In this document: one piece after another, positions 12,940-20,824 of the stretch
Layout: every line of letters begins with the position of its first letter
How positions within the stretch are numbered: position 1 is the first letter of the stretch
From: a virus
Lineage: Duplodnaviria; Heunggongvirae; Uroviricota; Caudoviricetes
Length of the DNA: 20,824 bases
Virus record (IMG/VR): IMGVR_UViG_2529293076_000030
Reading direction: 5' to 3' (one strand)
Notes under the pieces: generated by a model
Told to the model about the DNA's origin: nothing
The model's input: only the letters and a program-made list of their open reading frames with translations
The model's database searches: none
Program-made: the position numbers and the translations under genes

Positions 12940-13184
12940 GTAGATGATAATTATTATCATTTTGCGGGTCCTTTCCGGCGATCCGACAGGTTACGGGGCG
13001 GCGACCTCGCGGTTTTTCACTATTTATGAAAATTTTCCGGTTTAAGGCGTTTCCGTTCTTCTTCGCCGTAACCTAATGTTTTTATTTAAAACACCCCCTG
13101 AAAAGAAAGGAAACGACAGGTGCTGAAAACGGGCTTTTTGGCCTCTGTCGTTTCCTTTCTCTGTTTTTGTCCGTGGAATGAACA
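12940..13184 (+). other. cos: Lambda-type cos site: cosQ/cosN/cosB, with the 12-nt cohesive-end sequence GGGCGGCGACCT at 12996-13007
   Basis: ...CCGACAGGTTACG GGGCGGCGACCT CGCGG... read directly, matching the lambda right end/left end junction from memory. Downstream region up to Nu1 matches the lambda cosB region. Confidence 0.85.
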
Positions 13185-13730
13185 ATGGAAGTCAACAAAA
13201 AGCAGCTGGCTGACATTTTCGGCGCGAGTATCCGTACCATTCAGAACTGGCAGGAGCAGGGAATGCCCGTTCTGCGGGGTGGTGGCAAGGGTAATGAGGT
13301 ACTTTATGACTCTGCCGCCGCCATAAAATGGTATGCCGAAAGGGATGCTGAAATTGAGAACGAAAAGCTGCGCCGGGAAGTTGAAGAACTGAGGCAGGAC
13401 AGCGAGACAGATCTCCAGCCAGGGACTATTGAGTACGAACGCCATCGACTTACGCGTGCGCAGGCCGACGCACAGGAACTGAAGAATGCCAGAGACTCAG
13501 CTGAAGTGGTGGAAACCGCATTCTGTACTTTCGTGCTGTCGCGGATCGCAGGTGAAATTGCCAGTATTCTCGACGGGATCCCCCTGTCGGTGCAGCGGCG
13601 TTTTCCGGAACTGGAAAACCGACATGTTGATTTCCTGAAACGGGATATCATCAAAGCCATGAACAAAGCAGCCGCGCTGGATGAACTGATACCGGGGTTG
13701 CTGAGTGAATATATCGAACAGTCAGGTTAA
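13185..13730 (+). CDS. nu1: Terminase small subunit Nu1 (181 aa)
   Basis: MEVNKKQLADIFGASIRTIQNWQEQGMPVLRGGGKGNEVLYDSAAAIKWYAERDAEIENEKLRREVEEL... near-identical to lambda gpNu1. Confidence 0.95.
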   Translation: MEVNKKQLADIFGASIRTIQNWQEQGMPVLRGGGKGNEVLYDSAAAIKWYAERDAEIENEKLRREVEELRQDSETDLQPGTIEYERHRLTRAQADAQELKNARDSAEVVETAFCTFVLSRIAGEIASILDGIPLSVQRRFPELENRHVDFLKRDIIKAMNKAAALDELIPGLLSEYIEQSG

Positions 13731-15630
13731 CAGGCTGCGGCATTTTGTCCGCGCCGGGCTTCGCTCACTGTTCAGGCCGGAGCCACAGACCGCCGTTGAA
13801 TGGGCGGATGCCAGTTACTATCTCCCAAAAGAATCCGCATACCAGGAAGGGCGCTGGGAAACACTGCCCTTTCAGCGGGCCATCATGAATGCGATGGGCA
13901 GTGACTACATCCGCGAGGTGAATGTGGTGAAGTCTGCCCGTGTTGGTTATTCCAAAATGCTGCTGGGTGTTTATGCCTACTTCATAGAGCATAAGCAGCG
14001 CAACACCCTTATCTGGTTGCCGACGGATGGTGATGCCGAGAACTTTATGAAAACCCACGTTGAGCCGACTATTCGTGATATTCCGTCGCTGCTGGCGCTG
14101 GCCCCGTGGTATGGCAAAAAGCACCGGGATAACACGCTCACCATGAAGCGTTTCACCAATGGGCGTGGCTTCTGGTGCCTGGGCGGTAAAGCGGCAAAAA
14201 ACTACCGTGAAAAGTCAGTGGATGTGGCGGGTTATGATGAACTTGCTGCCTTTGATGAGGATATTGAACAGGAAGGCTCTCCGACGTTCCTGGGCGATAA
14301 GCGTATTGAAGGCTCGGTCTGGCCAAAGTCCATCCGTGGCTCCACGCCCAAAGTGAGAGGCACCTGCCAGATTGAGCGTGCAGCCAGTGAATCCCCGCAT
14401 TTTATGCGTTTTCATGTTGCCTGCCCGCACTGCGGGGAGGAGCAGTACCTTAAATTTGGCGATAAAGAGACGCCGTTTGGCCTCAAATGGACGCCGGATG
14501 ATCCCTCCAGCGTGTTTTATCTCTGCGAGCATAATGCCTGCGTCATCCGTCAGCAGGAGCTGGACTTTACTGATGCCCGTTATATCTGCGAAAAGACCGG
14601 GATCTGGACCCGTGATGGCATTCTCTGGTTTTCGTCATCCGGTGAAGAGATTGAACCGCCTGACAGTGTGACCTTTCACATCTGGACGGCGTACAGCCCG
14701 TTCACCACCTGGGTGCAGATTGTCAAAGACTGGATGAAGACGAAAGGGGATACGGGAAAACGTAAAACCTTCGTGAACACCACGCTCGGTGAGACATGGG
14801 AAGCGAAGATCGGCGAACGTCCGGATGCTGAAGTGATGGCAGAGCGGAAAGAGCATTATTCAGCGTCCGTTCCTGACCGTGTGGCTTACCTGACCGCCGG
14901 TATCGACTCCCAGCTGGATCGCTACGAAATGCGCGTATGGGGATGGGGGCCGGGTGAGGAAAGCTGGCTGATTGATCGGCAGATTATTATGGGCCGCCAC
15001 GACGATGAACAGACGCTGCTGCGTGTGGATGAGGCCATCAATAAAACCTATACCCGCCGGAATGGTGCAGAAATGTCGGTATCCCGTATCTGCTGGGATA
15101 CTGGCGGGATTGACCCGACTATTGTGTATGAACGCTCGAAAAAGCATGGGCTGTTCCGGGTGATCCCCATTAAAGGGGCATCCGTCTACGGAAAGCCGGT
15201 GGCCAGCATGCCACGTAAGCGAAACAAAAACGGGGTTTACCTTACCGAAATCGGTACGGATACCGCGAAAGAGCAGATTTATAACCGCTTCACACTGACG
15301 CCGGAAGGGGATGAACCGCTTCCCGGTGCCGTTCACTTCCCGAATAACCCGGATATTTTTGATCTGACCGAAGCGCAGCAACTGACTGCTGAAGAGCAGG
15401 TCGAAAAATGGGTGGATGGCAGGAAAAAAATACTGTGGGACAGCAAAAAGCGACGCAATGAGGCGCTCGACTGCTTCGTTTATGCGCTGGCGGCGCTGCG
15501 CATCAGTATTTCCCGCTGGCAGCTGGATCTCAGTGCACTGCTGGCGAGCCTGCAGGAAGAGGATGGTGCAGCAACCAACAAGAAAACACTGGCAGAATAC
15601 GCCCGTGCCTTATCCGGAGAGGATGAATGA
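13705..15630 (+). CDS. A: Terminase large subunit A (641 aa), GTG start overlapping Nu1
   Basis: [65 protein letters not shown]... near-identical to lambda gpA over full length. Confidence 0.95.
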
Positions 15631-15833
15631 CGCGACAGGAAGAACTTGCCGCTGCCCGTGCGGCACTGCATGACCTGATGACAGGAAAACGGGTGGCAAC
15701 GGTACAGAAAGACGGACGGCGAGTGGAGTTTACGACCACTTCCGTGTCTGACCTGAAAAAATACATTGCTGAGCTGGAAGTGCAGACCGGCATGACACAG
15801 CGACGCAGGGGACCTGCAGGATTTTATGTATGA
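15627..15833 (+). CDS. W: Head-tail joining protein W (68 aa)
   Basis: [56 protein letters not shown]... matches lambda gpW. ATGA overlap with A. Confidence 0.9.
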
Positions 15834-20181: not shown

Positions 20182-20195
20182 CTGTGGAGGAGTCC

Positions 20196-20594
20196 ATGAC
20201 GAAAGATGAACTGATTGCCCGTCTCCGCTCGCTGGGTGAACAACTGAACCGTGATGTCAGCCTGACGGGGACGAAAGAAGAACTGGCGCTCCGTGTGGCA
20301 GAGCTGGAAGAGGAGCTTGATGACACGGATGAAACTGCCGGTCAGGACACCCCTCTCAGCCGGGAAAATGTGCTGACCGGACATGAAAATGAGGTGGGAT
20401 CAGCGCAGCCGGATACCGTGATTCTGGATACGTCTGAACTGGTCACGGTCGTGGCACTGGTGAAGCTGCATACTGATGCACTTCACGTCACGCGGGATGA
20501 ACCTGTGGCATTTGTGCTGCCGGGAACGGCGTTTCGTGTCTCTGCCGGTGTGGCAGCCGAAATGACAGAGCGCGGCCTGGCCAGAATGCAATAA
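20196..20594 (+). CDS. FI: DNA-packaging protein FI (132 aa)
   Basis: MTKDELIARLRSLGEQLNRDVSLTGTKEELALRVAELEEELDDTDETAGQDTPLSRENVLTGHENEVG... matches lambda gpFI. The ORF-track 20157 start is an extension. Confidence 0.9.
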   Translation: MTKDELIARLRSLGEQLNRDVSLTGTKEELALRVAELEEELDDTDETAGQDTPLSRENVLTGHENEVGSAQPDTVILDTSELVTVVALVKLHTDALHVTRDEPVAFVLPGTAFRVSAGVAAEMTERGLARMQ

Positions 20595-20605
20595 CGGGAG
20601 GCGCT

Positions 20606-20824
20606 GTGGCTGATTTCGATAACCTGTTCGATGCTGCCATTGCCCGCGCCGATGAAACGATACGGGGGTACATGGGAACGTCAGCCACCATGACATCCGG
20701 TGAGCGGTCCGGCGCAGTAATACGTGGTGTTTTTGATGACCCTGAAAATATCAGCTATGCCGGACAGGGCGTGCGCGTTGAAGGCTCCAGCCCGTCCCTG
20801 TTTGTCCGGACTGATGATGTGCGG
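20606..20824 (+). CDS. FII: Head-tail connector FII, 5' partial (GTG start; runs off the window end)
   Basis: GTG at 20606 then ADFDNLFDAAIARADETIRGYMGTSATMTSGERSGAVIRGVFDDPENISYAGQGVRVEGSSPSLFVRTDDV... matches lambda gpFII N-terminus. Confidence 0.85.
   Translation, partial: MADFDNLFDAAIARADETIRGYMGTSATMTSGERSGAVIRGVFDDPENISYAGQGVRVEGSSPSLFVRTDDVR

Follow-up and report, generated by a model that had tools for sequence, protein, structure and literature searches.

Prophage Sp8 of Escherichia coli O157:H7 combines an intact cos site and late operon with probable immobility

The DNA analyzed here, a stretch of 20,824 nucleotides (the window), was found to be the left 20.8 kb of the E. coli O157:H7 prophage Sp8. 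Its part from 12940 to 20824 is, in our judgment, probably the cos and head-gene half of the Sp8 late operon, with Sp8 itself being a lambda/DLP12-like prophage at icd that has become immobilized. As an ordinary immobile prophage, Sp8 is already known. It was catalogued with the Sakai genome, the literature lists it as a "fixed" prophage found in most O157 strains, and Asadulghani et al. (2009; PMC2669165) described it as lacking CI/Cro while keeping all morphogenesis genes. Since the missing repressor, the intact virion genes, and the immobility of Sp8 were all published in 2009, the present results have little weight as a discovery; what they add is explanatory and accounts for the published negative results on this prophage.

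Aligned with Sp8 of strain Sakai (NC_002695.2, 1618292-1662679), the window was 100% identical over 1-10171 and 99.9% identical over 11480-20824. The two also agreed in gene order, in the junction between xis and a truncated O gene (O'), and in cos. The two copies differed in an extra IS3-family element in the window (10170-11480) and in seven single-base changes, all in the late region (7 in the late half versus 0 in the early half), six of them synonymous and one altering the portal protein (Q289R). The insertion sequence was absent from Sakai Sp8, a short alignment overlap at the break was consistent with a target duplication, and copies with 100% identity were present elsewhere in O157 genomes, while none of 5,426 complete E. 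coli genomes carried it at this Sp8 site. It was also noted that the element stands in the path of the late transcript. The length of Sp8 is 44.4 kb in Sakai and about 45.7 kb with the insertion sequence. In Sakai, CEC13091, and NJS001, icd adjoins the Sp8-type int gene; the window itself opens at the int stop codon, and attL and icd would fall just outside it. Both int and xis were intact. The features of the window are collected in Table 1.

Table 1. Coordinates of the Sp8 features located in the window
Feature	Position	Strand	Basis or remark
Integrase, 380 aa, icd-specific lambda-type tyrosine recombinase	1..1143	-	Pfam Arm-DNA-bind_1 and Phage_integrase; directly beside icd in Sakai/CEC13091
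Excisionase (xis), 78 aa	1133..1369	-	Pfam Exc; annotated excisionase
Deletion junction, about 140 bp past xis fused to the O interior	1370..1509		Genome matches on either side
5'-truncated replication initiator O	1509..2297	+	BLASTP: lambda O homology from residue 48
P (233 aa) and ren (100 aa), lambda-like	2294..3294	+	Pfam Phage_lambda_P
Late antiterminator Q, phage-82 type, 229 aa	7368..8057	+	Pfam PF06323
Putative late promoter (pR'-like)	8041..8069	+	Consensus scan only; role inferred
Two terminator-like hairpins before the lysis genes	8125-8151, 8239-8255	+	Consensus scan only; role inferred
Lysis cassette: holin, endolysin, Rz (Rz1 nested)	8379..9605	+	Pfam holin and Rz matches; annotation
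IS3-family insertion (IS629/IS1203 subtype), between bor and ybcV	10170..11480	-	Sakai alignment breaks exactly there
cosQ, GGGTCCT	12966..12972	+	Identical to lambda 48473-48479; spacing to cosN as in lambda
cosN	12991..13012	+	22/22 positions identical to lambda
cosB	13046..13162	+	R3 13048-13059, I1 interval, R2 13104-13115 (inverted), R1 13149-13160
Nu1, terminase small subunit, 181 aa	13185..13730	+	177/181 identical to lambda
A, terminase large subunit, 641 aa	13705..15630	+	636/641 identical to lambda; no stops
W, head-tail joining protein, 68 aa	15627..15833	+	Comparison with lambda gene
B, portal protein, 533 aa	15830..17431	+	Comparison with lambda gene
C, prohead protease, 439 aa; nested scaffold gene Nu3 from 18126	17412..18731	+	Comparison with lambda gene
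D, head decoration protein, 110 aa	18741..19073	+	Comparison with lambda gene
E, major capsid protein, 341 aa	19129..20154	+	Comparison with lambda gene
FI, 132 aa	20196..20594	+	Comparison with lambda gene
FII, first 73 codons, gene cut by the window end	20606..20824	+	Full length in Sakai

A lambda-type cos, with cosQ, cosN, and cosB, lies ahead of Nu1. The 12-nt cohesive end, GGGCGGCGACCT, occupies 12996-13007, and the cosQ sequence present upstream is needed for the terminal cut (PMC4669245). R3, R2, and R1 were all identical to lambda; the cosB changes relative to lambda comprised five substitutions in the I1 interval and a 1-bp deletion between R2 and R1. Two further substitutions, G>T at lambda bp 18 and G>A at lambda bp 24 (window 13013 and 13019), occurred in none of the 44 phage records spanning this stretch. 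As a packaging signal, judged by its sequence, the Sp8 cos would match the cos-Nu1 module carried by lambda and by Stx1-type phages.

Over 12940-20824, nucleotide identity was 97.8% to lambda and 98.6% to Stx1a-converting phages. From Nu1 to FI, the genes had the same lengths and the same kind of start codon as those of lambda, contained no internal stop, and encoded proteins with 98-99% amino acid identity. What the first-pass annotation said of the cos site, the terminase genes, the head genes, and the beginning of FII, namely that they are intact and close to lambda, was thus borne out, with neither stops nor frameshifts. In Sakai Sp8, the complete series of lambda virion genes, Nu1 to J, has its full length, and so have stf and tfa. 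As far as the loci reach in CEC13091 and NJS001, PGAP placed no flags on the late genes, and the two strains have the same terminase and head protein accessions. The Nu1 substitutions V46A and A72D were found in no lambda-type Nu1 of the phage collection; the Sp8 allele of A carries N37S and P388S.

We also compared synonymous and non-synonymous changes in the late genes. The pN/pS ratio was about 0.10 with lambda as the reference. For the changes not shared by any of three comparator phages (17 synonymous, 8 non-synonymous) it was about 0.15, an approximate value as these three phages alone define which changes count as private to Sp8. By this measure, there was no sign of drift under relaxed selection in the head genes. 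The proposal of recent decay fits these ratios, the lack of frameshifts, and the fixation of the element in the O157:H7 lineage, which is a young clone, and we consider it plausible. The low pN/pS and the 6:1 synonymous excess between the window and Sakai could also be compatible with continuing selection or with gene conversion from working phages.

The late activator of Sp8 is a phage-82-type Q. The Sp8 Q gene was 98.4% identical to Q of phage 82 at the nucleotide level, and the segment containing Q, the late-promoter region, and the start of the holin gene was 99.2% identical to phage PhiR47_2, as was the putative promoter and hairpin stretch (8041..8255) to its PhiR47_2 counterpart. The entire late operon (Q82-type Q, pR', lysis genes, cos, Nu1-J, stf, and tfa) was spared by the deletions described below. 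Its wholeness may reflect the little time that has elapsed and a normally silent state, rather than continued movement, and the silence itself would presumably stem from a want of Q expression.

Only about 140 bp separate xis from the 5'-truncated O, with the junction at about 1509. Nothing remains of the recombination genes, pL, N, cI, cro, pR, cII, or the start of O. Repressor, cro, N, and cII are likewise missing from the annotation that NCBI gives for this DNA, in agreement with the earlier statement that the immunity and early-control region is absent. Other genomes matched either window 1000-1509 (int and xis followed by a DUF4222 gene) or window 1509-1800 (replication protein), never both, and the two sides of the 1509 junction were contiguous in 296 complete genomes. 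O' lacks residues 1-47 by lambda numbering, and the first 27 of the 95 positions in the Pfam Phage_rep_O profile are left out of its match, which begins at position 28. PGAP, too, marks O' as an incomplete gene with a missing N-terminus. Five 17-bp ori iterons are kept within O' (1719-1830) and their sequence is not that of lambda. Over O'-P-ren as a whole, Sp8 and lambda were 94.5% identical in nucleotide sequence. An O gene truncated in this way contradicts the score of "Replication +" given to Sp8 in the in silico table of the 2009 study (PMC2669165).

By analogy with lambda, a single deletion from xis to about codon 48 of O would have taken the repressor and Cro together with pL, pR, and N, the drivers of int/xis, O/P, and Q. 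The general recombination genes and the N-terminal, DNA-binding part of O would have gone with them. Such a loss may have been favored since it would render the prophage harmless to its host.

We also looked at the right end of the prophage in Sakai. The 3' end of icd was present there in a single copy, no second one was found on the way from Sp8 to minD, and iraM-ymgJ of K-12 was absent. What Sakai has lost comprises the icd' fragment that would mark attR, along with some 12 kb of the chromosome next to it. Short repeats shared by the two Sp8 ends gave only chance matches, a search of Sakai with the K-12 icdC fragment returned only the attL copy, and no DLP12-like tRNA-type attachment site was found for Sp8. 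An icd' fragment is present at the right end of a UPEC prophage whose int/xis are 99.6% identical to those of Sp8. A second deletion, seen in Sakai, would have removed attR along with the neighboring 12 kb. The first-pass annotation had pointed to the downstream tail genes and attR as the place to look for signs against mobility; in Sakai, the tail genes proved intact and attR missing.

The behavior of Sp8 has been followed in Sakai treated with mitomycin C, where Sp8 DNA was found neither circularized nor replicated nor packaged, although the authors of that study had predicted Sp8 to be excisable (PMC2669165). Several active lambdoid prophages, Sp5, Sp10, and Sp15 among them, were present in the same cells (PMC2669165). 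Most non-induced Sakai prophages gave no transcriptional response to mitomycin C, but the array had dropped many of its probes for late genes of lambdoid phages, their sequences not being unique. It should be noted that the packaging assay used primers for the attP junction and was therefore blind to cos-initiated packaging of an unexcised prophage.

A Q82-type Q occurred at only two places in Sakai by megablast, Sp8 and Sp3, and the latter is itself without a repressor. No such Q was found in Sp10 or in the Stx1a-converting phage, here taken to represent Sp15; Sp4, Sp5, Sp6, Sp9, Sp11, Sp12, and Sp14 were covered through the Sakai megablast. According to the literature, the terminase of a cos phage requires a second cos for the terminal cut, and uncut DNA blocks the joining of tails. 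Together, these results suggest that Sp8 is immobile through its truncated O, its lost early promoters, its Q82-type Q, the missing attR (in Sakai), and the need for a second cos. The published negative results would follow from the missing attR, a Q82-type Q without an inducible source in the prophages checked, and a single chromosomal cos.

An alternative to simple immobility is that the late module has been selected to serve other prophages, either by supplying heads, tails, or terminase to defective lambda-like prophages in the same cell, for example the Stx1 prophage Sp15, or as a recombination reservoir from which working phages would rebuild their late region. No more than three lambdoid prophages of Sakai, Sp8 being one, have kept the whole set of morphogenesis genes, and Sp15 and Sp9 are head defective yet packaged, which the authors credited to complementation by other prophages (PMC2669165). 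The 96-98.6% identity of the Stx1a-converting phage over the module and the persistently low pN/pS point in the same direction, and the confinement of the Sakai differences to the late half, with 6/7 synonymous, fits exchange with paralogous modules. However, with no inducible Q82-type source found in the Sakai prophages checked, expression on demand would be unexplained, and most genes of non-induced prophages showed no induction. A low pN/pS can also come from an ancestor that lived as a free phage, and decay would not yet be visible in so young a lineage. We therefore regard selection for such a service as unlikely. A broader proposition holds that the O157:H7 lineage retains the Sp8 late operon as a common stock of lambda-type terminase, heads, and tails, or as a template for recombination, by which head-defective neighbors such as the Stx1 prophage could form infectious particles, and that the terminase of these neighbors might also start packaging in place at the chromosomal cos. 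This is in our estimate improbable. Were complementation to occur, Sp8 would help Shiga toxin 1 phages to spread.

Packaging of the whole element with the help of a lambdoid phage, as suggested by the first-pass annotation, was not supported. Sp8 would then behave as a satellite, for which a superinfecting or co-resident helper supplies early functions or terminase, and the entire element would be cut at cos, packaged, and transferred. All defined subsites of a lambda-type cos are conserved, and both 44.4 kb and about 45.7 kb fit the capacity limits of the lambda head. The terminase of the Stx1a-converting phage, given the identity of its cos-Nu1-A module (96-98.6%), should recognize the Sp8 cos, and other defective Sakai prophages are packaged through their neighbors' help. 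Nevertheless, Sp8 gave no trace of circularization, replication, or packaging in induced Sakai, where Sp5, Sp10, and Sp15 were at hand, and attR is absent there. O is truncated and promoterless, and a helper O would have to recognize non-lambda iterons. Without excision or replication there is one cos per chromosome, whereas the terminal cut needs a second, and tails cannot join uncut DNA. We consider transfer of this kind very unlikely.

Equally hard to credit is that the lambda-type terminase of an induced neighboring prophage nicks the chromosomal Sp8 cos and packages rightwards. Packaging would run past the head and tail genes as far as ompT and the min region, and its products would be particles with one end or, rarely, transductants. 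The subsites for initiation, cosN and cosB, are conserved, Stx1-type prophages encode a matching terminase, and the published assay was unable to see such events. The lambda "doc" particles from non-excising lysogens are a classical precedent. Against this, the absence of a second cos would leave heads with protruding DNA that tails cannot join, Sp8 carries private changes, two in cos and two in Nu1, and no experimental sign of the process exists.

Two further candidates were rejected. A PICI- or P4-like satellite (about 10-15 kb and without virion genes) does not match an element of 44.4 kb with a full head, tail, and terminase set, and is also ruled out by the truncated O and the absent attR in Sakai; for a gene-transfer-agent-like particle, the lambda terminase is cos specific and nothing pointed to host-controlled expression.

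Sp8 was compared with the known systems nearest to it. About 21.5 kb of Sp8, from R through cos to J, is colinear with lambda at about 97% identity, with identical cosQ, cosN, and R elements and with all head and tail proteins of the same length. Sp8 differs from lambda in lacking the immunity region, N, the recombination genes, and an O of full length, and it has an icd-specific integrase, a Q82-type Q, other ori iterons, and emrE and a large serine recombinase in the nin region. DLP12 of K-12 shares the Sp8 backbone at 94-99.5% identity (P', ren, emrE, ybcK, ybcN-ylcG, Rz, bor, ybcV, ybcW, cos, nohD [Nu1], tfa, ybcY, and ompT), also lacks the immunity region, and can be described as a further-deleted relative. 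It differs in lying at argU with another integrase, in an early deletion running from exo' to mid-P, and in the loss of about 21.7 kb, beginning near codon 100 of A and ending at tfa, which left cos and Nu1 in place but no head or tail genes.

The first-pass annotation had called an early-region loss combined with a complete packaging and head module unusual, but the pattern was found again elsewhere. An O6 UPEC prophage at icd with the same integrase, otherwise unrelated to Sp8, lacks immunity and replication genes and has intact terminase and head genes, and the published survey of Sakai scored Sp3, like Sp8, as being without repressor and anti-repressor (PMC2669165). Loss of the early region with a whole late operon recurs in independent E. 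coli prophages (DLP12, the O6 UPEC prophage, and, by the published scoring, Sp3), and this fits early-region loss being a common first step of prophage domestication. According to the literature, cos-bearing PICIs such as EcCICFT073 resemble Sp8 in being chromosomal, in carrying a lambda-like cos, and in not propagating alone. In contrast to these satellites, Sp8, for which neither excision nor packaging by way of a helper was seen in Sakai, is phage sized, with a full virion set and its own terminase, and combines these with crippled replication and, in Sakai, an absent attR.

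When the whole window was compared by megablast with complete E. coli genomes, it proved to be prophage Sp8 of E. coli O157:H7. Identity to Sp8 of the reference strain Sakai was 100% over 1-10171 and 99.9% over 11480-20824, and icd directly adjoins the element in Sakai as well as in CEC13091 and NJS001, two other strains that carry it. From the left, the gene order is int, xis, a partial replication gene O (O'), P, ren, emrE, a large serine recombinase gene, ybcN, ninE, ybcO, rusA, ylcG and Q, followed by holin, endolysin, Rz, bor, ybcV, ybcW, ylcI, cos and the lambda late genes. 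Sp8 is an already known element of 44.4 kb (~45.7 kb counting the insertion sequence described below), and Shaaban et al. (2016, PMC5359411) place it among the "fixed" prophages found in most O157 strains with high similarity. A low-GC block in the nin region (35-37%, against ~50% in the surroundings) holds emrE, a small ORF and a 508-aa, ybcK-like large serine recombinase with Resolvase, Recombinase and zinc-ribbon domains; the same block is found in the K-12 prophage DLP12 at 97.8% identity.

The gap between the two window-Sakai identity blocks is a 1.3-kb IS3-family insertion that is missing at this site in Sakai; its position between bor and ybcV puts it on the route of the late transcript. 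Its identity to the Sakai IS629 copies is just 95%, whereas many O157:H7 genomes have 100% identical copies elsewhere, and none of the complete E. coli genomes in the collection carries it at this site. In CEC13091, a different IS1203 copy is found ~90 bp away, in the opposite orientation.

The cos subsites, whose roles have been summarized by Feiss et al. (PMC4669245), were placed by alignment with circularised lambda and by exact-string searches. Relative to lambda, this region carries five substitutions within the I1 interval, lacks 1 bp between R2 and R1, and is changed at two positions immediately right of cosN. Nu1, A, W, B, C/Nu3, D, E and FI match their lambda counterparts in length, with no internal stops and 98-99% protein identity, while FII is incomplete in the window and continues past its end. 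At the nucleotide level, the cos/terminase/head stretch is 97.8% identical to lambda and up to 98.6% identical to Stx1a-converting phages. The first-pass annotation had described an intact cos site and intact, near-lambda terminase and head genes, and these results confirm that description.

Coordinates of features in the window
Feature	Position	Strand	Remarks
Truncated O ORF (O')	1473-2297		274 codons
Iterons	1719-1830		five, 17 bp, inside O'
Low-GC block	3300-5900		nin region
Q	7368-8057		98.4% nucleotide identity to phage 82 Q
IS3-family element	10170-11480	-	1311 bp; orfA 108 aa, orfB 295 aa
cosQ (GGGTCCT)	12966-12972
12-nt cohesive-end sequence	12996-13007		within 22-nt block identical to lambda
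R3	13048-13059		unchanged from lambda
R2	13104-13115		unchanged from lambda
R1	13149-13160		unchanged from lambda

The left part of the element tells of a large loss. A search with window positions 1000-1800 divided sharply at 1509: many genomes matched 1000-1509 alone (int, xis and then a DUF4222 gene), many others matched 1509-1800 alone (replication protein), and both halves were contiguous in only 296 genomes, the listed examples of which were all O157:H7 or unserotyped. The alignment of the O' product to lambda O begins only at lambda residue 48, the product matches the 95-position Pfam profile Phage_rep_O from position 28 onward, and the NCBI pipeline labels it incomplete with a missing N-terminus. 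The O reading frame lacks ~47 residues at the N-terminal end, and 12 codons of unrelated DNA, from the left of the deletion junction, form its start. So a single deletion took out the 5' end of O and the whole content of the xis-O interval of a lambdoid phage; in lambda, the recombination genes, N, cI, cro and cII lie here, as do the promoters pL and pR. The five iterons (TTACCYRAAWSAGGTAA), which are of non-lambda sequence and specificity, survive inside the truncated gene, and the origin is therefore retained although the initiator is without its N-terminus. Because iteron binding in lambda O resides in the N-terminal part, the Sp8 O protein is very probably inactive. The truncation contradicts the in-silico table of 2009, which scores Sp8 as "Replication +", with O and P apparently functional according to the text (PMC2669165, Table 1).

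At the other end of the element, the downstream tail genes proved intact: the Sakai sequence matched all lambda proteins from Nu1 through J, together with the side tail fibre and tfa, at full length and without stops. None of the late genes annotated in the CEC13091 and NJS001 stretches is flagged by PGAP, and the terminase and head protein accessions are identical between these two strains. The same check found no attR in Sakai. In a UPEC O6 prophage at icd with 99.6% identical int/xis, a 168-bp piece of the icd 3' end marks the far boundary, and ycgX and bluR come next; K-12 has a counterpart of this piece, icdC, where e14 ends. Sakai has a single copy of the icd 3' sequence, at attL, and homology with K-12 restarts only at ycgI, immediately ahead of minE, which indicates loss of the icd 3' fragment together with ~12 kb of chromosome from iraM to ymgJ. 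A tRNA-type attachment site was not found at Sp8 either, and the right-end arrangement of Sakai is shared by ~330 genomes. Past ompT, the Sakai right end holds an HTH/acetyltransferase gene, IS629 and an autotransporter fragment abutting ycgI and minE. Some O157 strains have the same junction without IS629, and this IS therefore need not have made the deletion.

The annotation had also raised mobilisation or packaging by a helper phage, and this is contradicted both by published experiments and by the anatomy of the element. A lambda-type terminase is available in a helper, since a Stx1a-converting phage shares cos, Nu1, A and the head segment at 96-98.6% identity, and the element, with or without the IS, would fit within the size limits of the lambda head. 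For Sp8 to be packaged as a unit, it would have to be excised and replicated into concatemers, or else two cos sites would be needed; excision is not possible in Sakai, and O is crippled. According to Asadulghani et al. (2009, PMC2669165), Sp8 is without CI and Cro, all lambdoid Sakai prophages but Sp4 encode an intact terminase, and a complete set of morphogenesis genes is conserved only in Sp8, Sp10 and Sp11; no circular form, replication or packaged DNA was detected for Sp8 with or without mitomycin C. Both the circularisation and the packaging assays used attP-junction primers (PMC2669165), and they thus report packaging of the excised element and are blind to initiation at cos in place. 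The sole form left, abortive one-ended packaging from the chromosomal cos, is conceivable; a cos terminase cannot make the terminal cut without a second cos, and the DNA that then protrudes blocks tail attachment (PMC6687093; PMC4669245).

The late operon itself is probably silent. The segment that begins with Q, includes the putative late promoter and ends at the start of holin is 99.2% identical to phage PhiR47_2, and consensus matches place one promoter-like site and two terminator-like hairpins between Q and holin. In lambdoid phages transcription from pR reaches Q, and pR is deleted in Sp8. Q proteins, moreover, work only at their own qut sites, as in the lambda, 21 and 82 systems. Two places in O157 genomes matched Sp8 Q; the second in Sakai, and the only other Q of the family there, is that of prophage Sp3 (87% amino-acid identity). 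No related Q was found in Sp10 or in a Stx1a-converting phage taken to represent Sp15. Since Sp3 is scored as lacking a repressor, not excising and not replicating (PMC2669165), these features together make it unlikely that an induced neighbour switches on the Sp8 late genes. Most prophages besides Sp5, Sp13, Sp15 and Sp1 showed no transcriptional response, with many lambdoid late-gene probes excluded as non-unique (PMC2669165). Phage 434 also has a match to the Sp8 Q gene, with 89.6% nucleotide identity, near the level of Sp3 Q.

The alternative reading of recent decay was judged reasonable. The head genes differ from lambda by 114 synonymous and 35 non-synonymous changes (pN/pS ~0.10). Most of the amino-acid differences (27 of 34) also occur in PhiR11_1 or an Stx1 phage, and changes absent from lambda and both of these comprise 17 synonymous and 8 non-synonymous ones; even these look like purifying selection, a signal most simply inherited from a free-living ancestor. 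Two cos changes (lambda bp 18 and 24) occur in none of 44 spanning phage records and Nu1 V46A and A72D in no lambda-type Nu1 of the phage collection; these may be the first signs of drift in the packaging apparatus. Compared with Sakai, the 9.3-kb late region has seven single-base differences (six synonymous, one non-synonymous) and the first 10.2 kb none. Some of the window alleles at these positions are those of lambda and others are unique, and their clustering in the late half mildly hints that this region has exchanged sequence with paralogous lambda-like modules, possibly through gene conversion among the lambda-like prophages, of which O157 has several. That the silent operon serves co-resident defective prophages, supplying parts or acting as a recombination template, seems improbable.

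A whole head module without an immunity region had been considered unusual, and comparison with related prophages does not bear this out. Sakai Sp3 is likewise scored without repressor and anti-repressor (PMC2669165). Joint deletion of the repressor and both early promoters would be among the few ways to lose cI without cell death, so that prophages at an early stage of decay may be expected to have an intact late operon behind a missing early region. The UPEC prophage at icd (E. coli O6:K2:H1 C 691-04A, L007 20000-40500) has also lost its immunity and replication genes, with ISEc52 at the break and ninB directly after, and retains intact terminase, portal, protease, decoration, capsid and FI genes; it also carries iss and the sitABCD iron/manganese transporter. 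DLP12, which also lacks the immunity region, shares its backbone with Sp8 at 94-99.5% identity, and the right arms of the two (ybcY, tfaX, ompT in DLP12) run colinearly. It has a different integrase, an independent, differently placed early-region deletion and a further loss of ~21.7 kb, between about codon 100 of A and tfa, which forms the aaaD/tfaD junction. In effect, DLP12 derives from an Sp8-like phage by deletion.
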